The notes under the pieces: model-generated
Database searches by the model: none
What the model saw: the letters and a program-made list of their open reading frames with translations, nothing else
What the model was told of the DNA's origin: nothing
Program-made: the position numbers and the translations under genes
Shown here: positions 41,815 through 64,000 of the stretch, in pieces
Layout of the letters: every line of letters begins with the position of its first letter
How positions within the stretch are numbered: the first letter of the stretch is position 1
Origin: Acidobacteriota bacterium
GTDB taxonomy: Bacteria; Acidobacteriota; UBA6911; RPQK01; JAJDTT01
Length of the DNA stretch: 64,000 nt
NCBI GenBank assembly: GCA_965263035.1
Contig: OZ253580.1
Coordinates: 5,600,001 to 5,664,000 of the forward strand
Direction of reading: 5' to 3'

Positions 41815-43497
41815 TCAGTCCAGCGGAAAGGTAACGGCCCCATCCGAGGGTGAGGAAACCGTACGGGCGTACTTGGCCAAGACGCCGGTCTTGGAACGAG
41901 GCCTGGAGGGTTTCCAGTTCCGGAGGCGGCGCCGGATCTCCTCGTCGCTCAACTCCACGTTCATCACGCGTTCCTCGATGTCCAGCTTGATGATGTCGCC
42001 ATCCTGCAAGGCGGCCAACGGTCCGCCGACGGCGGCTTCGGGAGCCACGTGCCCCACCACGAAACCCCGAGTGGCGCCCGAAAAACGCCCGTCCGTGATG
42101 AGAGCCACCTTGTCTCCCAATCCGGATCCCTGGACCGCTCCGGTGACTGCCAGCAGCTCTCGCATGCCCGGTCCACCCACGGGGCCCTCGTTGCGGATGA
42201 CGATGACGTCTCCCGGCTTGATCTGACCTTGCTTGATGGCGGCGAACGCCGTCTCCTCCCGGTCGAAGACCCGGGCGGGACCGGTGTGACCGTCCCGATC
42301 GACACCGGAGATTTTCAGCACGCACCCGTCGGGGGCCAGGTTTCCCCGCAAGATGATGAGGCCGCCGGTCTTCTTGACGGGATCGGATACGGGCCGGATG
42401 ACCTCTTGTCCCTCCGGAGCCTGACGGCGGGTCAGCTCCTGGGCCAGGGTCCTGCCGGTGACGGTGGGGAGCTCACCGTCGATGAGCCCCGCTTCCAGCA
42501 ACAGGCGGCCGACGTAGGTCATACCGCCGGCCTGGTGCATGTCGGGGGCGGTAAAGCGCCCCGCCGGCTTCAGGTCGGCCAGGACCGGAGTCTTGCGCGA
42601 GATCAGGTCGAAGTCGTCGATGTCCAGAGGAATGTCGGATTCCCGAGCGATGGCCAACAGATGGAGCACCACGTTGGTGGAGCCGGCCGTGGCCATGGCC
42701 CCCGTGATGGCATTGAGGATGGCCCGCCGGCTCAGGATGTCCCGGGGCCGGAGTCCCTGTTCCAGGAGCTGCATCACCAGCCGTCCGCATTCCAGGGCCG
42801 CCTCTTCCTTCTTGGGGTCCACCGCCGGGATTCCATTGAAGCCCATGGGGGAGATGCCCAACATCTCGAACGCGGTCGACATCGTGTTGGCGGTGAACTG
42901 GCCTCCGCACGCCCCCGCGCCGGGACAGGCGTAGTTCTCGATGCCCCTGAGTTCTTCCCGGTCGATTCGACCCGCATTGTAGGCCCCGATGGCCTCGTAG
43001 GCGTCCTGAACCGTGAGCTTACGCCCGTTGTATTCCCCCGGCATGATGGAACCGCTGTAGAGGATCAGACTGGGGATGTTGAGCCGCGACAGCGCCATGG
43101 CGGCGGCCGGGTTCGTCTTGTCGCATCCCGTGATGGCGACGAGGCCGTCGAACAGGTGTCCCCGGCAGACCAGCTCGATGGAGTCGGCGATGACCTCCCG
43201 GCTGACCAGCGACGCCTTCATGCCTTCGGTCCCCATGGCGATCCCGTCCGTCACCGAGATGCTGTTGAACTCCAGGGGAGTTCCGCCGGCGGCTCGAACC
43301 CCTTCCTTGACCTTTGCCGCCAGTCTGCGGTGGTTGAAGTTGCAGGGCGTGACCTCGATCCAGCAGTGGGAGACACCGATGAGAGGTTTGGCCAGGTCCT
43401 GGTCGGTGAAACCGATGGCCTTGAAGAAGGATCGAGCTCCCGCCCGGTCGGGCCCGTCCAGAAGAGTTCGGCTCTGGTGTCTCATATCGAATGGCAT
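41815..43497 (-). CDS. ilvD: dihydroxy-acid dehydratase
   Basis: PCN, GCDKT, GACGGQFTANTM and TDGRFSG motifs. Confidence 0.95.
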   Translation of the reverse strand: MPFDMRHQSRTLLDGPDRAGARSFFKAIGFTDQDLAKPLIGVSHCWIEVTPCNFNHRRLAAKVKEGVRAAGGTPLEFNSISVTDGIAMGTEGMKASLVSREVIADSIELVCRGHLFDGLVAITGCDKTNPAAAMALSRLNIPSLILYSGSIMPGEYNGRKLTVQDAYEAIGAYNAGRIDREELRGIENYACPGAGACGGQFTANTMSTAFEMLGISPMGFNGIPAVDPKKEEAALECGRLVMQLLEQGLRPRDILSRRAILNAITGAMATAGSTNVVLHLLAIARESDIPLDIDDFDLISRKTPVLADLKPAGRFTAPDMHQAGGMTYVGRLLLEAGLIDGELPTVTGRTLAQELTRRQAPEGQEVIRPVSDPVKKTGGLIILRGNLAPDGCVLKISGVDRDGHTGPARVFDREETAFAAIKQGQIKPGDVIVIRNEGPVGGPGMRELLAVTGAVQGSGLGDKVALITDGRFSGATRGFVVGHVAPEAAVGGPLAALQDGDIIKLDIEERVMNVELSDEEIRRRLRNWKPSRPRSKTGVLAKYARTVSSPSDGAVTFPLD

Positions 43498-43567: not shown

Positions 43568-44560
43568 ATGGACGACAAATTCCTAGAGGACCTGGAACGG
43601 ACAACACTGGCCGAAAATGGACAACTGGACTGGCGATTGGAGCTTCACGGCATGGCCAAGAACACCCGCATCAACTACATGAGTAGGCTCGGCTTTTTCG
43701 ACAAGTACATGAGAAAACAGTGGCCCGGATACCCGCCGGAAGCTCCCAGCGACAAAATGTTGGCCCATTTTTTGATCATGGAATTCATCCGGGGTCTCGC
43801 CGCCTCCGGGCTAAAGGCTTCCGTGAACGCCGTGAACTGGCGAGCCACTGTTCTGGACCATGTCAAGCCCGCCGGAGCACGGACCCGGCGGAACCTGAAG
43901 AGACTTCGGGCATTATCCGGCCGGGAAGGAAGAGGACGTGGACAGGCTCCGTCTCTGACGTTAGATCAGGTCCACAACCTGATCCAGACGACGATCGAGG
44001 CTCGCGATTCCTGGTCTTTCCGGGATGCCGCGCTGATTTCGACCTGCTACTACGGAATGCTCAGAATCTCGGAAGCTGTGTCCCTGGATCGGGACGACGT
44101 GACATTCCTCGATGACGGGAGGGCTCGACTGTTCATACGCCAACGCAAAAACGATCAAGAGGCCAAGGGCTCCAAGATCACCTTGCCCGAAGACGGAGCC
44201 GAACTGCTCCGCGCCTGGCTCGACTCCGTAGGGATCACGTCCGGTCCCCTGTTCCGGGGCGTCCGGCCTGCTCGGTCCGGGCCGAACATCGGAGACTCTA
44301 ACTTGAGCAGAGAACAGGCCCAAAGGATCGTCCAAGGCCGCGCCAAGGACGCCAAGCTGGGACATATCACCACGCACTCGCTGAGACGGAGCCACGCCAG
44401 ACACTTGAAGGAAGCCGGCGCATCCCTGGTCGAAATCCAGCACGCTGGAGGCTGGCGGTCTACGGGAATGCCCGCGCTGTATTCCGGGCATGACGAAGCA
44501 CAAGGCGACGTGATGCAAAAGTTTTACCCGGTCAGGCCCAGGCTCCGGCGGGTGAAGTAG
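43568..44560 (+). CDS. Cre-like tyrosine recombinase 1
   Basis: Catalytic R-K-H-R-W-Y in GMLRISE, RKND, HSLRR, GGW and PALY. Confidence 0.9.
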   Translation: MDDKFLEDLERTTLAENGQLDWRLELHGMAKNTRINYMSRLGFFDKYMRKQWPGYPPEAPSDKMLAHFLIMEFIRGLAASGLKASVNAVNWRATVLDHVKPAGARTRRNLKRLRALSGREGRGRGQAPSLTLDQVHNLIQTTIEARDSWSFRDAALISTCYYGMLRISEAVSLDRDDVTFLDDGRARLFIRQRKNDQEAKGSKITLPEDGAELLRAWLDSVGITSGPLFRGVRPARSGPNIGDSNLSREQAQRIVQGRAKDAKLGHITTHSLRRSHARHLKEAGASLVEIQHAGGWRSTGMPALYSGHDEAQGDVMQKFYPVRPRLRRVK

Positions 44561-44840: not shown

Positions 44841-46925
44841 TCAGGACGGACTCCGCCCCCATTCGAGGCCTTGGTGCCGATACCCCGCAAGGTACTTGGC
44901 CACTAGGTCCAGGACGTCATCGAAATCCCTCGGTTGAGTGGATTTCAGCTTTTCGATCCTGCCTCGCAAAATATCCTCATCGCCATACACGTCAACCAAC
45001 TCATCCCACTCCATACGAAAAGAACGGTGAACGATCCTTCCGGCGGCCTTCCGTGTCAACGTACGCGCTGACTCAAGCAGAGCCCGGGTCACGCGGGGCG
45101 AATCCGGGACTTCGAGAGGCGGTTCATCGGGACCAGACTCTTGTTTTATAGAGACGAACGTCCGGAGGAGACATTTTTCCTTGGCCAGAGATTCGGCTGG
45201 CGCAGATCGAACTTCCTCTCGCCAGATTCTTTCGAATTGCTGTGCCGCGCGCTCCGAGACGAGCTCGTGTCCTATGTTTTTTTGGTGTCCGACCAACATG
45301 ATCAGTTCCCACTTGGCCGACAACTGTTCGATCTGGGACAGGATGCATCGAACAGCATCCTCTATTCGGTCAGGGCTTTCGAGCTTTCGCACCAGCCGAT
45401 AGACTACTCTGCGGACGGCGTGGCGAGGTTCGAGGTCGAAAAACCCTCGCTGGAGATCAGGCATCTCGGGCAGGAGATTGAGGAGTACGATGCTTCCTGG
45501 TACGACGTGCTCCGGGCTGAACTGATCCTCGTACACTTCAAGGCCGGCAATGACATCCTGGCGCCTGTCAGCGGGCAAGATTCGCAGGTAATTGTCGAAG
45601 GCTTCGCGGTCCGCCATATGGCCCCATGCTTGTTCCGCTGCGGTAGATGCCTGGGAACCTTTATTGGGGACTCGTTCCAAGTACAGACGCATAAAATCTT
45701 CATCCGCCACGCGTCTCTCCTGAAGCCACGCGTCTTTAAAATCAGCGCCGTGGTTGAGGCCGCCAACATGCTGCTGGGCTGCGGGGAACAAGTGGAAGAT
45801 GAGTTGTCGGGCGACCCCTTTGTGGTCCGGTGCCGCCGTCTCGATCAGTTCGTTGATCTGATTTTCTCGGGACGATGGATCTTCGAGAGCACTCCTGGTC
45901 GAGGTCGTGGTGAGGCTGGGTATCGATTTGTGCAAGGCAGAAAACACACCCGGGAGAGACATGCGAATGGCTTCGAGGGCGAGAACATCCACCAGGTTGA
46001 CTCGGCCGTTGAGGGCTTGCACAGTACCGCGAATTGCAATGGCATAGCGACGAACATGCCTGATGTTTCTTATAGGGGGCCGGACGACGTCGTGAAACAC
46101 GTCAGGCCAGCGTTCCTCGTCGAATGGACCGGCATTTTCTATCCCCGAAAGCGCGCCGTCGATCGCGTGGGTAATCTGGCTGATCATCACCTCTTCCGGA
46201 ATCTCGGGGAGATCGATATCCCACTGTAGAATTTTCTCAAGATAGTCTCGTCCGCGGATCCCCGTCGATTCAGTCAGTGCCTTTTCCACCCGCTCCCGGT
46301 CGAATGCCGTGATGTAGATGACGTTTGGAAAATTCGCAGTCAGCCGGACGAGCTTGAATACCGCTCGGATTTCCGGGGTCGTCAGGCGGTCAATGTCATC
46401 GACGACGACGACGAGTGGCGTCCCGAGAGCAGTAAGGGCCTTCTTGACCTTGTCCCTGCGCTCGGCGATTCCCTCCTTCCTGAGATCGGGTAGATTTACA
46501 AGAAGTTTCATCGCCAGTCTCACCCGGTCAATCCATGGCCCAGCAACAGGTAGCCACCCCCACCTCATCCCGGAGAAGCTCTCTCCATAGCGGGTCAAAC
46601 TCTTACCCAACTCATAAAAACGACGACGGTCACGGCCTCTAAGCTGCGCCGAGAGTTCAACGAAGAAGGACTCGACGAGTTGTTCGGTGCCGCTAAACAT
46701 CCACGGGTTGAAGTCGAGGATCTCGATTCCCGCTTTTTTCAGGTGCGGACGAACCAGATTGACGAAGGACGTTTTTCCTGAACCCCAGGGCCCCAAGGCA
46801 CCGGTCACGAGACCCTCCGAGGCGTCGAGCGAGAGAAGCTGTTCGGAAAACGATTCCGCTAGCTTTGCCCTGCCGAGGACATCCTCCTCGGGATTCCGAA
46901 TAGGGGTATCCATCCTAATTGTCAT
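44841..46925 (-). CDS. KAP family P-loop NTPase
   Basis: DVLGR, GPWGSGKT, FNPW, VVVVDDIDRL and YLEKI motifs. Confidence 0.9.
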   Translation of the reverse strand: MTIRMDTPIRNPEEDVLGRAKLAESFSEQLLSLDASEGLVTGALGPWGSGKTSFVNLVRPHLKKAGIEILDFNPWMFSGTEQLVESFFVELSAQLRGRDRRRFYELGKSLTRYGESFSGMRWGWLPVAGPWIDRVRLAMKLLVNLPDLRKEGIAERRDKVKKALTALGTPLVVVVDDIDRLTTPEIRAVFKLVRLTANFPNVIYITAFDRERVEKALTESTGIRGRDYLEKILQWDIDLPEIPEEVMISQITHAIDGALSGIENAGPFDEERWPDVFHDVVRPPIRNIRHVRRYAIAIRGTVQALNGRVNLVDVLALEAIRMSLPGVFSALHKSIPSLTTTSTRSALEDPSSRENQINELIETAAPDHKGVARQLIFHLFPAAQQHVGGLNHGADFKDAWLQERRVADEDFMRLYLERVPNKGSQASTAAEQAWGHMADREAFDNYLRILPADRRQDVIAGLEVYEDQFSPEHVVPGSIVLLNLLPEMPDLQRGFFDLEPRHAVRRVVYRLVRKLESPDRIEDAVRCILSQIEQLSAKWELIMLVGHQKNIGHELVSERAAQQFERIWREEVRSAPAESLAKEKCLLRTFVSIKQESGPDEPPLEVPDSPRVTRALLESARTLTRKAAGRIVHRSFRMEWDELVDVYGDEDILRGRIEKLKSTQPRDFDDVLDLVAKYLAGYRHQGLEWGRSPS

Positions 46926-47340: not shown

Positions 47341-48339
47341 ATGAGCGGAAGACTAAACCTGGATGATTTGGAACGAACCGTGCTGGCTGGGGACGAGGAC
47401 CGGGACTGGAGGCGGAAGCTGCGAGCCCGGCCAGCGGGGACGCAGAGAGCCTATGGATCACGCCTGCTCCGGTTCGACCGCTGGATGGCCAAACGCTTCG
47501 CCGACGTAGACCCGGAGCGACCCAAAGACCAGCACGTCGCTCTTCACCTGATCCGGGAGTTCAAACGAGGACGAACCGGCGCGGTCCTGCGACTGAGCAC
47601 CACCGCCTTGCGTTGGAGGGCCAACGCGCTGGACCAGCCTTCGCCAATCGGACGCAAGACGCGGGAAACCCTGGATGTGCTGCTCCGGGAATTGGCCCGA
47701 GTCGGACGGACCAAACGTAGCGCTCCCAGCTTGTCCGAATCGGAAATGGACCGGCTGTTCCGGCAAGCCGAATCCGCCGTCGTCCCGTGGGGACTCCGAG
47801 ACGGTGCGCTAATAGCCGCCTGCTTTTACGGGCTGCTCAGGGCCTCCGAAGCCCTGGCCCTCGATGTCCAGGACGTCCGGTTCCAGCTCAACGGGGAAGC
47901 CACGCTCAGAATCCGCCGGAGCAAAACCGACCAGCATGGGGAGGGCCGGAACGTCACCCTGATTCCCGCCGCTGCGGATCGGCTCCGGCGCTGGACCGAC
48001 TTCGTCGAAATCCAGACCGGCCCCGTCTTTCGCTCTATCCACCGGCTGCCCTTCGGGGATTATCAGATTCGCAGCAAGCGCCTGTCCTTCAACACCTTCC
48101 ACGGACTGCTCGCATATCGCGCCAAACAAGCCGGGCTCGGGAGGGTGAGTACGCACACTTTGAGAAGGAGCGGCGCCAGGGCGCTCATGGAGCGGGGTGC
48201 TACCGTAGCCGAGTTCCAGTTGGCCGGAGGCTGGACAAGCGGCTTGATGGCGGTCTACTACGCCTGAAACCCGGAGGCTCAGGGTGCCGTCGTGCGAAAG
48301 TATTTCTCGGGAGCCCCAAAGCTCAAAGCCGTCAAGTAG
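47341..48339 (+). pseudogene. Cre-like tyrosine recombinase 2 with a premature TGA (48265-48267) after the catalytic Tyr
   Basis: LLRASE, SKTD, HTLRR, GGW and VYY motifs; the read-through tail NPEAQGAVVRKYFSGAPKLKAVK aligns with the C-terminus of recombinase 1. Confidence 0.8.
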
Positions 48340-52186: not shown

Positions 52187-52287
52187 GATCTCGCGCCTCC
52201 ACCAGCGCCTCGCGGCGGAGCGGGGAACTCTCAAGCGCGTAGCGCTGCCCTTCTGTGGATGTCCGACCAACATGGGAGACTGACGAC

Positions 52288-53265
52288 ATGAACCAGAGTT
52301 TCGATGTGGATGGATTCATCCGCCGTATTGGTGAACGGCTCGTCGACGAATTCAAGGACGCCAAAGCAGGCACGACTCCATCGACCGTAGGGGCGGCGGC
52401 AGAGCAACCGGTGAGGGATCAACTGGCACAGGTCTTGCCTAGAGGTATAGCAGTGGGAGAGGGTTTCGTGATCGACAGCTATGGCGCGACGAGTCGTCAG
52501 CAGGATGTAGTCCTTTACGAGCGGGATATTTGTCCCGTGTTTTCGATAAACAAAACTCCGCAGACGACGTATTACCCGTGCGAAGGGGTCATCGGTGTAG
52601 GCGAAGTCAAGAGTTCGCTGGATCGGGACTCCCTGCGTGACGCATTCCAAAAGGTCGCATCCGTAAAGCGCCTCCGACGGCACGTCGTACATCACCTAAT
52701 TCCTAACCCCAAGACCGGGGAACTATTCCCCATGAATCGCAACTACCTGACGCATGGGGAGTCGATACTTCGGATGGATGAAGCATCGGACCGCAAGGAA
52801 AGGCTACAGATATTCGGGTTCGTGTTGGCGGGCGCATCACGGGTAAAACAGGAAACGCTGGTAATGACCTTCCGAGAACTTGCTGCGCAGATGGGAGACG
52901 GCTTGTCACCTAACCTGTTAGCGACATTGGATGGTCACGCCATTAATTGGGGCAACATCGGAAAGCGAGAGCGGAGAGAAATACGTCAGTCTAAAGATGG
53001 CACGTACAAGTTGACCGTATACAAGGACGGTCCCCAGAGCTGGCAGGCATCGTGGTCGGCAGAGACTGCGGCGCATGTTGGTGCATCCGAAAACGCCGAT
53101 GCGTTCCGCTTGCTGGTGCGCTGGATAAGGCAGGGCGCTGAGTTGGGTAGAACCAGCGACATAAGGTCGTTTGACCGCTACTTTGAGGTACGATCCTCTG
53201 GCGAATCGAATGCCATGTGGTGCATTCCGAAGCTGAGGACACGGCGAAACCGCATCAAGACATGA
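52288..53265 (+). CDS. DUF6602/NucC-like PD-(D/E)XK nuclease
   Basis: VLPRGIAVGEGFVIDSYG..SRQQDVVLYE...GEVKS motif. Confidence 0.75.
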   Translation: MNQSFDVDGFIRRIGERLVDEFKDAKAGTTPSTVGAAAEQPVRDQLAQVLPRGIAVGEGFVIDSYGATSRQQDVVLYERDICPVFSINKTPQTTYYPCEGVIGVGEVKSSLDRDSLRDAFQKVASVKRLRRHVVHHLIPNPKTGELFPMNRNYLTHGESILRMDEASDRKERLQIFGFVLAGASRVKQETLVMTFRELAAQMGDGLSPNLLATLDGHAINWGNIGKRERREIRQSKDGTYKLTVYKDGPQSWQASWSAETAAHVGASENADAFRLLVRWIRQGAELGRTSDIRSFDRYFEVRSSGESNAMWCIPKLRTRRNRIKT

Positions 53266-55985: not shown

Positions 55986-56966
55986 TCAGACGGAAATCCT
56001 CTCCACCAAGTTCCCGCTAACGCGCCGCCGCCGGTCGTAGATCTGGGTGGTGCGGGGGTGGGCGTGACCGGCCAGGTACTGGACGTCTTCGAGCGGCACG
56101 TTCTGGCTGAGCAGATCCGTGACCACCAGGACGCGGAACGAGTGGGGCGAGAGGATCTTCGGCAGCCCGGCCGCCTTGAGCCGGCGCTTGAGCACCAGCT
56201 GCACGGCCAGAGGCGACATCGCCCGATCGGTGAGCGGACTGGAGCGGCGCTGCCCGGCCCGATACAGTGGTGAGGCCTGGGGCGCATCCGTGAGCCCGGC
56301 CCCTTCGAGGTAGGCCGCGATCCATTCGTCGAGATCATGGCGCACCGGGATCTCCCGCGACTTGCCCCCTTTCTCCGCAAACTGCAGCGACCGGTGGTTG
56401 CCGTTGTCGCGCAGGTCCTGGATCCGGAGCCGGCTGATGGCCCCGACCCGGGCGCCGGTGTAGATGAGCGTCCCGAGGACCGCCCGATCCCGAAGCCCGT
56501 ACACGTCGCGGGTTTTGATGGCGGCGAGGAGACGGCGCGCCTGGTCGACACTCACCTCGGGCGTGCGGCCCTCCCCGAAGGGATGGCGCACCCCCCGGAC
56601 CGACTGGAACGGATTCAAGACCGCCGCGTGCCGGGCCACCAGGACGTCGAAGAAGTGGCGCAGCGCCGCGAGGGCCTGGTTCTGGGTGGGGGCGGCCCCG
56701 GGGAGCTCGTCCAGGAACCGGCCGGCCAGGCCGGGGGTCACCTGGTGCAGCTCCAGCCCTTGGTCCTCGCACCACGCGAGGAACCGACTCACCTGGTGGG
56801 CGTAGGCGGTCCGGGTGTGGGGATTCGAGATTCGCGCAGAGAAGAACTCGTCCGCGGCGAAGCAGGCCGCCTTGCCGGCTCTCACGAGAATGGCCGGGAA
56901 GTCCCCTTGGAGGTCATTTGTTGCCGGTGAATCTCCGGTTCTGAGGGCGAGGTCGGTGTCGCTCAT
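55986..56966 (-). CDS. Xer-like tyrosine recombinase 3
   Basis: TGARVG, EKGGK, HSFR, AGH and TTQIY motifs. Confidence 0.9.
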   Translation of the reverse strand: MSDTDLALRTGDSPATNDLQGDFPAILVRAGKAACFAADEFFSARISNPHTRTAYAHQVSRFLAWCEDQGLELHQVTPGLAGRFLDELPGAAPTQNQALAALRHFFDVLVARHAAVLNPFQSVRGVRHPFGEGRTPEVSVDQARRLLAAIKTRDVYGLRDRAVLGTLIYTGARVGAISRLRIQDLRDNGNHRSLQFAEKGGKSREIPVRHDLDEWIAAYLEGAGLTDAPQASPLYRAGQRRSSPLTDRAMSPLAVQLVLKRRLKAAGLPKILSPHSFRVLVVTDLLSQNVPLEDVQYLAGHAHPRTTQIYDRRRRVSGNLVERISV

Positions 56967-57193: not shown

Positions 57194-59482
57194 CTACGAA
57201 GCAGGAGTCGCCAGAGCTTCCCAGAACGACCGGATCTTCGGGTCGGTGTCGGGACGCCCGACGAGACCCGCCATGATTTGCTTCGGCAGGAACCGTGGGC
57301 GCAGGAACTTTTTCCGCTGTCCCCTCGTGGCGCGTTCTTCCAGTCTCATGATGCCGTGTTCAACCAGCTGGCGCTGGAGCCCATCCCATCGGGGGTCCGA
57401 GAAGAGACTCGATAACGTGTCGTCCTGTAGGCACACGAGGGCGGTTCGGCGGTACACTCGCATCAGGCGCTCCATCAAGTTCATCTCTGCCTCCGGCACC
57501 GCGGGACCCTTCGGTCCGAAATCGTCCGTGATCGGAGCCCCACACGACTGTAGCGTGTCCGTGATGAACGACGGGTCGTAGTTCGTATCCGTCGTATCGT
57601 CATTGTCGACCACACGAATGCCTGTCACATCATCCATGCCGAGTCCGGTCAACTCCAGTCGCGTCGACTCTAGGCTGACCCTAGGTTCGTACAGCCGTAC
57701 CCCGTTCGCCTCGCACGCCACGAACCGAGTCGACGTGAGGTCAGTGCGCCGCATGACTACGTCGATCAACGAACATTGACTCAAGGTGACGTTCTTGAGA
57801 TCGCTGCCCGGGAATACGACGGACTGAATCGTGCAGCCTTGGATGCCATCTGAATCCCGGCAGCCCTGTTCCTCCCGCAGCAACGCCATAGCGAGGAGCC
57901 CGGCATTCTCCCGCACCTGCGCCGTCCGGCGGCTCTCCTGCTCGGCCGCCTTCGAGAGACGGTCCAGCCGTTCCTGCAATCGGTTGCCGTCGGCCGGCGC
58001 ATCCGACGCAGCCGTCTCCTGCGCTACCCGGTCGGCAACTTCCTCGGGTAAAGCAGAACGACTCAGGATGACGCGTAGATTCGCGTCCGCGGCGAACTGG
58101 GCCGTAATTGTTCTGGCGAGAAAGAAGAAGAAGAAGAGCTCGTGTTCGAAGGCGATTCCGCCGCGCTCCGACGGTGCGTCGCCCCGGCCGAGAAAGGCCA
58201 TCGCCGGTAGCCGCTCTACAATCACCTGCTTTGCGGTGTCCGGCAGCCCTGCGTCATGGACGAAGTATTCCGCAACGAAACGAATCGAGCCGACATCGAG
58301 TCCGCGGGTTTCCTGGTTCCACATCTCCTCCGCGAGTTCCTGCATCAAGTTGCCGAACTGGTCTGTGGTCATGAGAGGTCGCGAGTTTCGATCCAACAGC
58401 TTGTCGTTCAGTTCTCTCGACGAGTACTCTCGCACGAGCGTGCGCAGCAGATCGTCGCCACTGGAGAACGAGGGGTCATGCTGCAACATCTGGACGACCC
58501 GCGTGAAGAACAGCGGCTTCAAGGCCAGAGAGGGATGGTCCTTGAAGGTGTGCGTCACGCGTTTGCAAAACGTCTCTGCCTCCGACGAGGACCAGCCCTT
58601 CTTCTCGATCCGTTTCAGGTAGTCCTGTCGATCTTCGTCAGACCACTCCTGGATTTGAACCGGCACGTGGGACCACGCCTGATCGCCGGTGGTCGAAGCA
58701 CGCCCAGCCCTTTCGAGAAACTCCTCCTCGTAGTACGTGGACCGGGCCGACACGAGAATCTGACCGTCTCCATGGAGCTGTTCGAGGAATCCCGCGAGCG
58801 AGCTGAAGGCGTCGTCGTAGCCACTGACGCCGAGTAGCTCGTCGAATCCGTCGATGACCGGCACGAGGACTCCGAGCTGTGCCAGGACCGCGACGGAATG
58901 ATAGGTGAGACCGACCTTCAGGTCCTGTAGCTCAGTCGCCAGCGCCTCGCTCAACCGTGCGAGCGATCGCCCCTGAGCGTTCACGTAGAGCAGCAGCCTA
59001 GAAGTGCGTCCGCTCAGATAGGCTTCAGCCTGCCGCCGCACGAGTTCCCGCAGGACAAAGGTCTTGCCGGCGCCTGGCCCACCGGTGACCATCACCACTC
59101 GCGTTGTGTCGGCTTCCTTACCGAGCAGGTCGGTGAGGACTTCGATGGCTGCCCCGGAACGGTGCGGGGATTCTGCCCGCGTTGGAATGAACAGCATGGG
59201 TTTCTGCGCCGATTGAATCATCTGCGCGACGTGACGCAGATCGGCCATGCCGGGTCCGGATGCGAAGGTGCGGTACAGAACGCGGGATGCACCGCTCACC
59301 GTGACCCACACGCCCTGGTCTCGCGAGACGGAGAACGTAGCCTCTTGCGGTTCGCCGCGCATGGTCCAGCTGGCGCGGAACCTGCGGTCGGACCCATCGA
59401 CATCGACCCTTGTGCCCGGGTCTCCGAACGATGCCAGATCGTGCCTGATGCGTTCGTTCCAGTACGCAAAATAGTCATTCAT
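57194..59482 (-). CDS. NACHT/STAND NTPase with pentapeptide-like repeats
   Basis: GGPGAGKT, VIDGFDEL and FEHE motifs; VFPGSDLKNVTLSQCSL repeats. Confidence 0.8.
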   Translation of the reverse strand: MNDYFAYWNERIRHDLASFGDPGTRVDVDGSDRRFRASWTMRGEPQEATFSVSRDQGVWVTVSGASRVLYRTFASGPGMADLRHVAQMIQSAQKPMLFIPTRAESPHRSGAAIEVLTDLLGKEADTTRVVMVTGGPGAGKTFVLRELVRRQAEAYLSGRTSRLLLYVNAQGRSLARLSEALATELQDLKVGLTYHSVAVLAQLGVLVPVIDGFDELLGVSGYDDAFSSLAGFLEQLHGDGQILVSARSTYYEEEFLERAGRASTTGDQAWSHVPVQIQEWSDEDRQDYLKRIEKKGWSSSEAETFCKRVTHTFKDHPSLALKPLFFTRVVQMLQHDPSFSSGDDLLRTLVREYSSRELNDKLLDRNSRPLMTTDQFGNLMQELAEEMWNQETRGLDVGSIRFVAEYFVHDAGLPDTAKQVIVERLPAMAFLGRGDAPSERGGIAFEHELFFFFFLARTITAQFAADANLRVILSRSALPEEVADRVAQETAASDAPADGNRLQERLDRLSKAAEQESRRTAQVRENAGLLAMALLREEQGCRDSDGIQGCTIQSVVFPGSDLKNVTLSQCSLIDVVMRRTDLTSTRFVACEANGVRLYEPRVSLESTRLELTGLGMDDVTGIRVVDNDDTTDTNYDPSFITDTLQSCGAPITDDFGPKGPAVPEAEMNLMERLMRVYRRTALVCLQDDTLSSLFSDPRWDGLQRQLVEHGIMRLEERATRGQRKKFLRPRFLPKQIMAGLVGRPDTDPKIRSFWEALATPAS

Positions 59483-60057
59483 GAGGACGTCTGCTCCAGG
59501 CACTGGATACGTACTCCACAATCGCTCAGGGCCCGATCGTTGAGCCCTTCGCCGGCTGCGCGCCGCCGCATCCAGGCGGCACCCGCCGGGTCGGCTGCAT
59601 GGGCCGAGAGAGCGGCGGGTAGCAGGTCATCGTCGTCGCTTACGATTCCGACTCTCGACTGGCCGAGCGTAGCCGCGAAGACGGCGTCGTGGCCGAGCAT
59701 GGCGTCGACCATCTTCTGCCGTCTAGGTTTGGCTTGGAGCCTTACCGTACCTCGCAGCTCGATGTCTGAAAATTGGAGCATCGTTATCGCGAGTGTCGGC
59801 CGAAGGAGCAGTCCTTGCCGTCGGCCGCGGAGCGCTGGAAGCAACGGCAGCAACAATAGTGCGGACGGGCTGTGAACGCCCTGTTCATCGATCCAGCCGC
59901 CGTACAGACGCACATCCAGTTCACGCAGGCCCGGGAACGCAGCATGCGACGCGCGAGCGATCAGATCGAGGAGTTCCGCCGTACGGATCTCGACCTCGTG
60001 CTCGAACCTGATGCGCGGGCAGAGGTTGTCGTAGTCGACGAGTGCAAGGCCCTGCAT
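59479..60057 (-). CDS. NYN domain (PIN-like) nuclease
   Basis: VDYDN, QKMVD and VSDDDDLLPA motifs; ATGA overlap with the NACHT gene. Confidence 0.8.
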   Translation of the reverse strand: MQGLALVDYDNLCPRIRFEHEVEIRTAELLDLIARASHAAFPGLRELDVRLYGGWIDEQGVHSPSALLLLPLLPALRGRRQGLLLRPTLAITMLQFSDIELRGTVRLQAKPRRQKMVDAMLGHDAVFAATLGQSRVGIVSDDDDLLPAALSAHAADPAGAAWMRRRAAGEGLNDRALSDCGVRIQCLEQTSS

Positions 60058-60205: not shown

Positions 60206-60445
60206 TCAGCCCTTCACCCGCCGCGGGTCGTTGCCCGGAGCCACCGTGTCCTTGTCGCGGATCTTGCCGTCGACGCCCTTTGTCGTCAGCTCTCCCCCGC
60301 CCTGCTTCTTCAGCATCTCGCGGGCGGTGGCTTGGGCCTCTTCCTGCGTGCGATGGACGCTTCCCGCGCGCGAGGCATTGTTTCGCTTGTTCTCCCAAGT
60401 CCCATCGGGGCGACGGGACACTGTACGATCTTGCGGCTTGCTCAT
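60206..60445 (-). CDS. DUF2188 family protein
   Basis: TQEEAQATAR...GVDGKIRDKDT..NDP motif. Confidence 0.85.
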   Translation of the reverse strand: MSKPQDRTVSRRPDGTWENKRNNASRAGSVHRTQEEAQATAREMLKKQGGGELTTKGVDGKIRDKDTVAPGNDPRRVKG

Positions 60446-60697
60446 GCTGCCCCTTCCTGCTGCTCTAAGAGGGTATGGAGGCAATCCCATATATACTATC
60501 GTAGGTGACCGACAGGACTAGACCCCAAATAAGCGTGATCCAAGGGGGGCCTGTTAAAGAGTACCGGAAAAGCTCATCCTAAGTTTCCCCCGCACAGGCA
60601 GGGATCTTTTGGACAGTGTCCGTTAACTGAAATTTTCGGAAGCCTATCGAGGCACGGTCTCGTTTCGAGGAATGTCTCCGAGGTTACGAACAACGAA

Positions 60698-60761
60698 GCC
60701 CGTAGAAGGGCCTGAGATCGATGATCTCCCTTGAGCCAAGGGGTAGGGGGCACAGGCCTTT
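60698..60761 (+). repeat. island hairpin motif, copy B
   Basis: 35 of 50 positions identical to copy A by manual alignment. Confidence 0.6.
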
Positions 60762-60870
60762 ACGCGCTATCGCAGTCCTGCATCGGTTCCAGCAAGGGAT
60801 CGGGGTCCTGACAATCGCACCCCGGTACATCTTGGCCCTTTTCGCCTCTAAAGAATCCCGGGACCGGCGT

Positions 60871-61875
60871 TCAGGCTCCATACCGGAGGCGAGCCACGGC
60901 ACCCCGACCGGCCAGTTGTGCACGGGCATAGTGGCCTGGCATCTGGGGAGACGACCACCGGCCGTCGATCTGCATCTCGACGATCGTGGCCCCATTTGCG
61001 ACGAGACTCTGAGCCGATCCCACCCGGAGGCTGTGGCCAGAAACCCGGCCCTCGATATCGGCGGCGGCGGCGCGGCGTTTCAACATTAGCCGGAGCCCGG
61101 AGACCGAGAGTGGCTGATTCCCGCAGACGTCCCCTCGGCGTACCCGGCGAAACAGGGGCCCGGTGGAGAATCCGGCCCTATCGAGCCAAACTCGGATTCT
61201 TTTCACGGTGCGGGGCCCGAGATATTGCACGGCTCCCTTGCCCTCCGGGTCGGACTTCGAGAATCGGATGGTGAGACGCCCGGAGCCGTCCGGCTCAAAA
61301 ATGACGTCCTCGACCACCAGGGCGCATAGTTCCGAGACCCGGAGCATGGCATCGCTCATAACGGAGATGATCGCGGCGTCTCGCAATCCGGCCAGAGAGT
61401 GATTCCCATTGGCGGCGAGGGCGGCCATAACGTCCGCATCCCTCCATTGAACGCCTTTCACTTGCCCGCGTCCCCGTCCCTTCCCCTTGCGGCGGAGCCC
61501 GGCGAGGACGGCTTGACTTACGGGGCCTACCGGGGACGGCTGGCCGGTGGTCTTGGATTGGAACCGGACGGCGGCCACCAACTGCCCGGCAACAGCGGGC
61601 GATTTCCCCACATCGTGCAAGCTGGTGAGGTATTCGGCAAGCGTGTCATCCGTGAGGGGCTGCCCGTCCAGGTAGTCGTAGAGACGTTGCAGCTGCCCCT
61701 GGTAGGCGGCTCGGGTGTTGGCCGAGATACTGGCAGCCGCCAACTCGCGGGCCCCGGCGCTGATCCGGGCCAGTGGTCCGACTCCGGAAGACATTGAGGG
61801 GGACACTTCGAGGGCGTTCTTATTGGGCGTCGTCGTCTTTTCCTCGGTGACATTGCCAGTAGAATAACTCACCAT
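60871..61875 (-). CDS. Cre-like tyrosine recombinase 4 (start may be 61794)
   Basis: MLRVSE, SKSD, SGHSLRVGSA, GRW and PGHY motifs. Confidence 0.9.
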   Translation of the reverse strand: MVSYSTGNVTEEKTTTPNKNALEVSPSMSSGVGPLARISAGARELAAASISANTRAAYQGQLQRLYDYLDGQPLTDDTLAEYLTSLHDVGKSPAVAGQLVAAVRFQSKTTGQPSPVGPVSQAVLAGLRRKGKGRGRGQVKGVQWRDADVMAALAANGNHSLAGLRDAAIISVMSDAMLRVSELCALVVEDVIFEPDGSGRLTIRFSKSDPEGKGAVQYLGPRTVKRIRVWLDRAGFSTGPLFRRVRRGDVCGNQPLSVSGLRLMLKRRAAAADIEGRVSGHSLRVGSAQSLVANGATIVEMQIDGRWSSPQMPGHYARAQLAGRGAVARLRYGA

Positions 61876-61897
61876 AAGTGTAATTATAGAGAGTTAT
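61864..61897. other. loxP-like site (13-8-13)
   Basis: ATAACTCACCATA-AGTGTAAT-TATAGAGAGTTAT at the 5' end of a Cre-like gene. Confidence 0.8.
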
Positions 61898-62225
61898 TAT
61901 GGGGTCTGTCAAGCGCTTCAAAACATGCTCATCAGGGTTGAGGAACCGGGATGAAGGGAGGATTGCGCAACTATATCCGATGGAAATGAACCAGGAACGG
62001 GGTGCTCCACCCTCCATTTCTGTGCGGCCAATTCAAAAAAAGATGAACTAGCCGCAATAGTGGGAAGCGGCCCCACTCCATGGAACCCTTTTGCCACCTG
62101 ACAACGACGACTCCCAGAGCAAGGTTCGACAAATCGTTGTCCCCGTGCCAAGACCAGGAACCATCCCGCCGGTATACCCCTGCCATCCTGGGTTTCCGGG
62201 GGATTTGATATATCCTGAGTGTTCA

Positions 62226-64000
62226 ATGACCAACAACGATCTGAACTGGATTGCCAACTACATCTGGGGTATCGCCGACGACGTCCTGCGCGACCTCTAC
62301 GTTCGCGGCAAGTACCGCGACGTCATTCTTCCCATGACCGTTCTCCGCCGGCTGGATGTGGTGTTGGAGGACACCAAGCAAGCGGTACTGGACATGAAAG
62401 CCACTCTCGACGCGGTGGGTGTAGTCGAGCAAGATTCGTCCCTGCGGCAGGCGGCGGAGCAGGATTTTTACAACACCTCGAAGTTCACCTTGCGCGACTT
62501 GAGGTCCCGCACCAACCGTCAGCAGCTCACGGCTGACTTTGAGGCCTACCTCGACGGCTTTTCGCCCAACGTCCAGGACATACTCGAAAACTTCGAGTTC
62601 CGAAACCAAATTCCGCGGTTGTCCAAGGCGGATGCCTTAGGCACGCTCATCGAGAAACTCACTTCGCCTGATATCAATCTGAGTCCGGACCCGGTCATGA
62701 ACGCCGATGGTTCCGTGCGGTACCCCGGCCTCGACAATCATGGGATGGGTTCGATCTTTGAAGAGCTGGTTCGCCGCTTCAACGAGGAGAACAATGAGGA
62801 GGCGGGTGAACACTGGACACCACGTGACGCCGTGACTCTGATGGCGAAGCTTCTCTTCCTACCCATCGCTGACGAAATCAGATCTGGAACTTACCTGCTC
62901 TACGATGGCGCCTGCGGGACCGGCGGCATGCTGACAGTGGCCGAGGAAACACTGTCGCAGCTCGCCGCCGAGGGCGGCAAGCAGGTTTCCACGCATCTCT
63001 ATGGCCAGGAGATCAACGCCGAAACCTACGCCATCTGCAAGGCCGACCTGCTGCTGAAAGGCGAAGGCTCGGCGGCCGACAATATCGTGGGCGGACCGGA
63101 GCACTCGACGCTCGCCAACGACGCATTCCCGTCCAATGAGTTCGACTTCATGCTTTCCAATCCGCCCTACGGCAAGAGCTGGAAGAGTGACTTGGCACGC
63201 ATGGGCGGCAAGAAGGATATGCGCGACCCGCGTTTCGTGATCGAGCATGCGGGCGATCCCGAATATTCGCTGGTCACGCGGTCCAGCGACGGTCAGATGC
63301 TGTTTCTCGCCAACAAGCTCTCCAAGATGAAGCAGCACACGCCGCTCGGCAGCCGCATCGCCGAGGTCCACAACGGCAGCTCCCTTTTCACCGGAGATGC
63401 CGGACAGGGTGAGAGCAACATCCGCCGCTGGATCATCGAGAACGATTGGTTGGAGGCGATGGTCGCTCTGCCTCTCAACATGTTCTACAACACCGGCATC
63501 GCCACCTATGTCTGGGTGCTCACGAACCGAAAACCCGATCACCGGAAGGGCAAGGTGCAGCTAATCGACGCTACGAAGAGATACCAGCCTTTGCGGAAAA
63601 ACCTGGGAAAGAAGAACTGCGAACTCGGTGAAGAGGACATTGCTTGGATCTGCGAGACGTTCCTCGGGTTCGAGGAGAATGACCAGAGCAAGATCTTCGA
63701 CAATGCCGCCTTCGGCTACTGGAAAGTGACGGTGGAAAGGCCGTTGCGGATCGAAGGTATTGACCCCAGCCGTGCATACAAGGCTGCGGAGATCAGAAGA
63801 CTGAAAGCAAGTGGCGAGCGGAGTGAGACGGCACCGGCCGTGATCAAAAAGATTCACAAGCGGGGGACCGAACCCAACCCCCTTCACGGCCTATTCAGAA
63901 CTACCATCAATGGGCGATCTGCCGTGGTGGAGTACGAACCGGACACCGATCTGCGCGACACGGAGCAGATCCCTCTGCTGGAGGAGGGAGGAATTGACGG
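62226..64000 (+). CDS. hsdM: type I restriction-modification M subunit, 3'-partial
   Basis: MTNNDLNWIANYIWGIADDVLRD, GEHWTPR, YDGACGTGGML and NPPY motifs; runs off the window end. Confidence 0.95.
   Translation, partial: MTNNDLNWIANYIWGIADDVLRDLYVRGKYRDVILPMTVLRRLDVVLEDTKQAVLDMKATLDAVGVVEQDSSLRQAAEQDFYNTSKFTLRDLRSRTNRQQLTADFEAYLDGFSPNVQDILENFEFRNQIPRLSKADALGTLIEKLTSPDINLSPDPVMNADGSVRYPGLDNHGMGSIFEELVRRFNEENNEEAGEHWTPRDAVTLMAKLLFLPIADEIRSGTYLLYDGACGTGGMLTVAEETLSQLAAEGGKQVSTHLYGQEINAETYAICKADLLLKGEGSAADNIVGGPEHSTLANDAFPSNEFDFMLSNPPYGKSWKSDLARMGGKKDMRDPRFVIEHAGDPEYSLVTRSSDGQMLFLANKLSKMKQHTPLGSRIAEVHNGSSLFTGDAGQGESNIRRWIIENDWLEAMVALPLNMFYNTGIATYVWVLTNRKPDHRKGKVQLIDATKRYQPLRKNLGKKNCELGEEDIAWICETFLGFEENDQSKIFDNAAFGYWKVTVERPLRIEGIDPSRAYKAAEIRRLKASGERSETAPAVIKKIHKRGTEPNPLHGLFRTTINGRSAVVEYEPDTDLRDTEQIPLLEEGGID

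Follow-up and report, generated by a model that had tools for sequence, protein, structure and literature searches.

A candidate Cre/lox-type recombinase and site, the site overlapping the recombinase promoter and start codon, in a genomic island of an Acidobacteriota bacterium

The DNA analysed here is a 64,000-nucleotide stretch of the genome of an Acidobacteriota bacterium (contig OZ253580.1 of assembly GCA_965263035.1, positions 5,600,001 to 5,664,000 of the forward strand), referred to below as the window; unless marked as genome positions, coordinates are those of the window. It contains an intact gene for a Cre-like tyrosine recombinase, a lox-like inverted repeat which lies across the 5' end of this gene, and a promoter which overlaps the repeat. 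The features of the locus are as follows:

60871..61875, minus strand: Cre-like tyrosine recombinase gene, intact, 334 amino acids; the sole long open reading frame (ORF) over the site
61864..61897, no strand assigned: lox-like core site, a 34-bp 13-8-13 inverted repeat
61864-61876: inner (gene-proximal) arm, containing the recombinase ATG (61873-61875)
61877-61884: spacer, 8 bp, asymmetric
61885-61897: outer arm
61883..61912, minus strand: sigma-70 consensus promoter into the recombinase gene (-35 at 61907-61912, -10 at 61883-61888)
60696..60713, minus strand: weak terminator-like hairpin about 160 nt past the recombinase stop codon, a pattern match only

A preliminary description of this DNA had reported an AT-rich 13-8-13 site at the 5' end of an intact recombinase carrying two peptide motifs. 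Both motifs were found in the product of the ORF at 60871-61875 on the minus strand, and the geometry of the site stands, as does the match between its arms, which are reverse-complementary at 11/13 positions; its end, given as 61898, was one base too far and is corrected here to 61897. The likeness to loxP noted for the right arm (10/13 identical) was borne out, and counting by inspection adds 9/13 for the left arm. Across the complete 6,198,070-bp genome, which has 62% G+C, inverted 13-8-13 repeats with at least 11/13 matching positions occur at 263 positions, eight of them with at least 70% A+T. From this genome-wide count, the chance of an AT-rich repeat falling at the start of a given gene is about 0.002 with a tolerance of 40 nt. 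Since AT-rich palindromes are this rare, overlap with the start codon of a Cre-like gene by chance is unlikely. Two AT-rich 13-8-13 palindromes outside the window lie at genome positions 6028477 (11/13, with lox-like inner ends) and 514836 (13/13), and neither is adjoined by a recombinase of the Cre-like family. Within the window, a second 13-8-13 repeat (11/13) with unrelated arms is located at about 62022-62055, some 125 nt past the lox-like site in the direction of hsdM, and could be a hairpin or the site of another protein.

A pattern scan of positions 60600-62400 returned a single promoter-like match, namely the sigma-70 promoter, which the preliminary description had not noticed, with 12/12 consensus positions and 18-nt spacing. 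Its -35 hexamer stands 9 nt outside the outer arm, and its -10 hexamer straddles the border between outer arm and spacer, with four bases in the arm and two in the spacer. A further 7 nt downstream comes the ATG, before which no Shine-Dalgarno sequence is recognizable by inspection. The usual spacing between a -10 hexamer and the transcription start would place the start of the mRNA at or beside the ATG, and from this spacing alone we infer that the recombinase mRNA is leaderless or nearly so. A recombinase dimer on the site would cover both the start point and the -10, so that, most simply, the site probably doubles as an autoregulatory operator. The ATG within the inner arm appears to be the real start, because Met28 is not kept in the close relatives, all of which share the first four codons, give or take one substitution.

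Pfam analysis of the 334 amino acid protein revealed a phage-integrase catalytic domain (PF00589; E 5.6e-14; residues 146-320). Among its 18 sequence matches in the PDB, 17 are Cre or Cre-derived (Tre) chains, the best being Cre (E 2.6e-10), and the other is an archaeal Xer-like recombinase (E 8e-4). Residues R179, K207, H281, R284, W307 and Y316 align to Cre R173, K201, H289, R292, W315 and Y324, which are listed as the catalytic residues of Cre in PMC10250229. Across 29 aligned family members none of the six varies, including the catalytic Trp (W307) to which the preliminary description had pointed. An AlphaFold2 model built from this shallow alignment (mean predicted local distance difference test score, pLDDT, 69.9; the N-terminal 39 residues and residues 277-334 poor) shows, at moderate confidence, two helical or mixed domains. 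Approximately the first 30 ranks of a Foldseek search with this model were Cre or Cre-derived chains (E 1e-13, 18-21% identity), followed by XerA (2e-8) and by lambda Int, IntI and XerH (1e-5 to 1e-6). NCBIfam gave only weak Xer-type matches far under the cut-off, and its integron-integrase models TIGR02249 and NF011946 gave no match. An arm-binding N-terminal domain is absent. The catalytic domain, the six residues, the nearest structure and the geometry of the site all place the protein among the Cre-type simple tyrosine recombinases.

A protein search, in which 8000 candidates were scored, gave 1089 matches. Among the 120 best matches, which are those listed, 13 have 83-94% identity (P0001-P0013) and the others 64% or less. 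In species-representative genomes 344 of 379 candidate stretches were confirmed, and the loci of the best 80 relatives were analysed. Their genomes are metagenome-assembled, often hold several copies, and span many lineages, including Acidobacteriota, Latescibacterota, Poribacteria, Gammaproteobacteria, Alphaproteobacteria, Dehalococcoidia, Binatia, Nitrospinota, Rhodothermales, Entotheonella and Trueperaceae. Several of those named are known sponge symbionts. The family is strongly conserved, at 55-65% identity over at least 10 phyla. Within the genus of the source genome, seven of the eight other genomes carry a copy at 55-59% amino acid identity, and one only (G012) has a form at 84%, referred to below as locus L003. 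The source genome itself encodes nine further paralogues (34-41% identity), none with a comparable palindrome. The protein is a member of a large family of chromosomal switch recombinases and not a phage or plasmid analogue of Cre, a point that the preliminary description had missed.

The plasmid collection searched (72,556 records) held 500 matching records, among them Pantoea and Vibrio plasmids, all below 60% identity and the best at 40.3%; in the phage collection (tblastn, E 1e-5) one record matched, a Microcystis phage at 30%. Identity with a known recombinase-site pair, which the preliminary description had named as a possible refutation, was thus not found in either collection. Among the partly accessible literature that was searched, no paper was found which describes this recombinase family, including in sponge-associated bacteria. 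A quick tree was built without L013 and L014, which repeat L012: the three recombinase copies lie exactly 9605 bp apart on one 23,101-bp record. This spacing suggests a 9.6-kb circle assembled as a concatemer, and thus a plasmid-borne member of the family. Clustering of all ORFs of the 81 loci revealed no neighbour family in common with the source locus. A cluster of 775 amino acid ORFs in nine loci was discarded, being unrelated to the NACHT protein of the same length in the window.

Sites of the same geometry occur in the relatives. Within the region from -200 to +100 around the start, 13 of the 80 relatives have a 13-8-13 repeat with at least 11/13 matching positions, compared with 78 of 2830 control windows. 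Seven loci from Latescibacterota and Acidobacteriota (L008, L009, L019, L010, L025, L039 and L028) align with the source locus over the -35, outer arm, -10, spacer and inner arm; in these the hexamers are conserved and the arms differ both from the source site and between lineages, co-varying with each other. In five of the seven, no other match to an arm lies within 6 kb; L008 and L019 do have additional arm-like matches, but these lack a matching spacer.

Other relatives carry two sites. L020, L023 and L033 have flanks that are 88% identical and all 26 arm bases in common, while four of the eight spacer bases vary. A second site with one good arm lies about 265 nt upstream, and by inspection its spacer and that of the first site are reverse-complementary at 7/8 positions in each genome and change together. 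L070 has a site on either side of the recombinase gene, the two being 1.32 kb apart and having fully (8/8) reverse-complementary spacers, and in L052, L053, L057 and L075 inverted repeats of 20-28 nt are present at both ends of the gene. The pairs in L020, L023, L033 and L070 are good evidence for recombination by this family at sites of this kind, because matching spacers matter only for strand exchange. From these arrangements, many family members look like DNA inversion switches.

The site pattern was also scanned in metagenome and viral contigs, where 12 metagenome and 11 viral stretches (20-50% G+C) matched, none of them related to the element. Two of these stretches, L089 (1156-1189) and L102 (6593-6626), are further candidate pairs: each has a perfect or near-perfect lox-like palindrome, with the outer seven arm bases as in the site of the window, and a distant tyrosine recombinase (27-28% identity) no more than about 0.6 kb away.

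Similarity between loci breaks at the site. The alignment of L003 with the source locus (83.5% over 1038 nt) opens at the arm/spacer border, two bases before the ATG, and extends about 30 nt beyond the stop codon. Upstream of it, 3.2 kb of L003 sequence match another part of the source genome (146.3-149.6 kb) at 87%, and this similarity stops 5 nt before the recombinase block. L003 therefore retains the inner arm, and the start of another gene replaces the spacer, outer arm and promoter. A comparison of this junction as occupied and empty gave no clean pair: its right flank in the source genome consists of repeats, without a syntenic counterpart in the L003 genome. L026, L029, L032 and L040, of which three are from one genome and the fourth from another, share a 2.6-kb unit at 98% identity. 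Its left end falls inside a lox-like site, 1.6 kb upstream of the recombinase, and its right end a little beyond the recombinase stop codon. To the left of this lox-like site the copies are 81% identical or unrelated, and at the right end of the units no lox-like site was found.

Three side observations were made at these and related loci. In L029 (2697-4366) an insertion of about 1.67 kb resembling an insertion sequence, which ends in short inverted repeats and is flanked by an apparent target duplication of 5 bp, interrupts the inner arm. Giant fibronectin-III repeat proteins are encoded on the minus strands of L026 (3-4277), L040 (1-4366) and L037 (2-1354); they start immediately past the lox-like site, divergent from the recombinase cassette, which fits a control of surface-protein genes. 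A repeat of about 165 bp at L083 (7280-7460; genome about 151.3 kb), present in some 30 copies at 88-95% in the related genome G001, looks like a miniature mobile element.

Contigs from other samples were also compared with the locus. One from a second study covers 60946-62282 without a difference. Related-strain contigs from three further runs have an A>T change at 61871, which raises the match of the arms to 12/13 and alters codon 2, and one contig of 85% identity ceases to match at 61878, at the arm/spacer border.

The single copy of the site in the window, remarked upon in the preliminary description, was confirmed by a scan in which none of 100 shuffles gave a match, and the second site that the description had proposed to look for was sought in the complete genome. 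Here the site is again single-copy under every relaxation tried. The degenerate pattern with up to 3 mismatches, each arm with up to 2, arm plus spacer with up to 6, and a spacer plus arm score yielded no credible partner genome-wide; no decayed second site was found within 60 kb when each arm was allowed up to 3 mismatches; and no inverted repeat brackets the recombinase gene from -2.6 to +1.5 kb. The best half-site (genome position 4361971; arm 10/13, spacer 7/8), 1.3 Mb away, was taken as chance. With no partner site in the genome, neither inversion nor excision is possible there now.

We propose that the locus contains a Cre-type core site which is also the operator of a leaderless, self-repressed recombinase gene and which currently lacks a partner, and assign this reading a rough probability of 0.6. 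Each arm would be bound by one of two recombinase monomers. The outer arm spans the -10 and the promoter spacer, and the inner arm spans the ATG and the predicted start of transcription. As the bound arms would thereby cover all of these elements, binding should repress the recombinase gene, making the site both operator and crossover site. Cleavage and strand exchange would take place in the 8-bp spacer; an exchange would leave the inner arm with the gene and swap everything from the -10 outward. The possible partners would be only the sister chromosome, in dimer resolution, or incoming DNA with a compatible site. The cognate pairing proposed in the preliminary description gains support from Cre being the best match by both sequence and fold, from the six Cre catalytic positions being kept throughout the aligned relatives, from the same-geometry sites in relatives and from their co-varying spacers; gene and site are likely to form a cognate binding pair. 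As judged from sequence, this is a credible Cre/lox-type pair within an already known kind of system, its newness being measured against the plasmid and phage collections.

Several points weigh against this proposal. The upstream windows of 67 of the 80 relatives have no repeat with at least 11/13 matching positions, and the nearest clade within the genus (55-59% amino acid identity) has a different conserved upstream region with no such palindrome. L003, the closest genomic relative, has lost the outer arm and promoter, so that the gene can be kept without a full site. No recombination product and no joint at the site were seen in the contigs of four of the 22 listed runs, which, as contigs, cannot show rare rearranged forms. 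Position 7 of the arm is C in the source site, whereas the active Cre-type sites in PMC10250229 share T. Being partnerless, the site is a putative recombination site in this cell, and may be vestigial.

The locus is part of a genomic island, which starts after ilvD (41815-43497); housekeeping genes resume at about 72-75 kb in window coordinates. The island contains four tyrosine recombinase genes, all within 18 kb, together with genes for a KAP NTPase, a DUF6602 protein, a NACHT/pentapeptide ATPase and a DUF2188 protein, and a type I restriction-modification operon. It looks, from its gene content, like an anti-phage defence island. The genes in addition to the Cre-like recombinase are:

43745-44491, plus strand: tyrosine recombinase gene 1
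44841-46925, minus strand: KAP-family NTPase
47506-48300, plus strand: tyrosine recombinase gene 2, with an in-frame TGA
52255-53265, plus strand: DUF6602 protein
55986-56966, minus strand: tyrosine recombinase gene 3, XerC/D-like, with many copies at 76-89% nucleotide identity in the genome and genus
57194-59521, minus strand: NACHT ATPase with pentapeptide repeats
59479-60057: 192 amino acid ORF between the DUF2188 and NACHT genes
60206..60490, minus strand: DUF2188 gene, downstream of the recombinase and co-directional with it; context
62091..64000, plus strand: hsdM, first gene of hsdM-hsdS-hsdR, running past the window end and divergent from the recombinase; context

The products of the type I operon have HsdM_N and N6_Mtase, Methylase_S, and HSDR_N/SWI2_SNF2 domains (Pfam). 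With other hsdM copies, in the source genome and in related ones, similarity begins only at about 62130, and the 233 nt between the site and this conserved hsdM upstream region are unique. None of eight genomes of the genus contains a counterpart to the block from NACHT to DUF2188. An inverted pair of 11-mers, of which there are exactly two copies in the genome (window 43516 and 80054), was considered as the island borders and rejected, because housekeeping genes resume at about 72-75 kb, the second copy starts a MerR-type gene among them, and the adjacent spacers mismatch. Shuffling of hsdS was also rejected: there is one hsdS (473 amino acids), and the 12 kb inspected contain only short inverted repeats at chance level, none within hsdS.

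Cre/loxP resolves dimers for phage P1. It has in common with the source pair the two-domain fold, the catalytic R-K-H-R-W-Y, and a 34-bp 13-8-13 site with an asymmetric spacer near the gene, present once per replicon. The two differ in that the proteins are approximately 20% identical, and the source pair is chromosomal, in a defence island of a genome with 62% G+C. Furthermore, loxP lies some hundreds of bp from cre, whereas the source site runs across the start codon and the promoter -10. Vika/vox, Nigri/nox, Panto/pox and YR1-YR12 are reportedly published Cre-type pairs as well (PMC10250229, PMC3553980, PMC4957104). The search logic in PMC10250229, which the preliminary description shares, a Cre homologue with a palindrome of 13-15 bp and an 8-bp gap within 1 kb, led to about 500 predicted pairs, and 8 of 17 predicted pairs were validated as active. 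As in the active sites in that paper, the source outer arm ends in a T-A-T-A type motif beside the spacer.

The Cre-like inversion switches described above (L020/L023/L033, L070 and the L052 clade) belong to the same protein family (47-62% amino acid identity) and have the same type of site next to or around the gene; they differ in having two inverted sites with matched spacers, whereas the source genome has one site and no invertible segment. The integrase signature and the repeated sites beyond the gene that characterize integrons (IntI/attI/attC) were not found at the source locus, and phase-variable type I restriction-modification systems have several hsdS copies or half-genes, unlike the single hsdS here. 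A recombinase site which overlaps its own promoter, coupling recombination to autorepression, is a feature of res of the Tn3-family resolvases and of TnpI/IRS of Tn5401. Those systems carry out cointegrate resolution with accessory subsites, whereas the source locus has a single minimal core site and no transposase.

Four other explanations were considered. The palindrome may serve promoter control only, being bound by the recombinase or another regulator, and either be no longer a crossover site or never have been one, with the real target of the recombinase elsewhere or lost. This would account for its coincidence with a 12/12 promoter, for the lack of a partner site and for the atypical position 7, and is in keeping with the 8 of 17 active among published predictions of this type (PMC10250229). 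It does not explain why the repeat has the 13-8-13 geometry of a tyrosine recombinase core site, nor why two-site relatives have matched, co-varying spacers, relevant only to strand exchange, nor why similarity to L003 and within the L026 group breaks at the site. We consider it unlikely.

Still less probable is that the site is the remnant of an inversion switch whose second, inverted site was lost, for example on arrival of the restriction-modification or NACHT block, leaving the promoter fixed on the recombinase. Two-site switches do exist in the same family, and the flanks are strain-specific island DNA without a genus counterpart; the 233 nt between the site and the conserved hsdM upstream region are unique. 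The absence of a decayed second site within 60 kb (with each arm allowed up to 3 mismatches) speaks against such a remnant, as does the intact single-site, promoter-embedded layout of at least seven other loci in two phyla. That the single-site layout recurs, in five of seven cases with no further arm match within 6 kb, argues that it is maintained for its own sake.

The solitary site may instead act as a docking platform comparable to attI, at which site-bearing circular DNA, perhaps with defence modules such as hsdMSR, is captured or swapped, each exchange rewiring the recombinase promoter. Recombinase gene and variable DNA extend away from the site in opposite directions, in the manner of intI and the cassettes at attI; the conserved unit stops at the spacer, with different DNA beyond it in the source, L003 and the L026 group; and the locus is in a defence island with four tyrosine recombinase genes. 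On the other side, no hybrid or second site was found at the far end of hsdMSR or elsewhere, the integron-integrase signature is absent, and none of the 23 pattern stretches in metagenome and viral contigs is related to the element; we regard this explanation as improbable. Finally, a part-palindromic AT-rich promoter region arising by chance, though partly accounted for in composition by the consensus -10 and AT-rich spacer and in keeping with 263 repeats of at least 11/13 genome-wide, is very improbable given that only eight such repeats are AT-rich, that repeats are enriched at the same place in relatives (13/80 versus 78/2830), and that the arms co-vary with the layout kept.

If active, the recombinase and its core site, which would double as the operator, would be one more Cre/lox-type pair beside the approximately 500 predicted in PMC10250229. 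They would also be a candidate orthogonal tool from a high-G+C bacterium, with arms that differ from loxP at 7 of 26 positions and a protein about 20% identical to Cre. The interest of the biology is wider than that of such a use. A docking platform, if that explanation were true, would be a previously unrecognised route by which defence islands and surface-protein loci are assembled across many bacterial phyla. With the site placed in a consensus promoter and start codon, binding should switch the enzyme off and exchange should disconnect its promoter, which would amount to a compact, self-limiting design.

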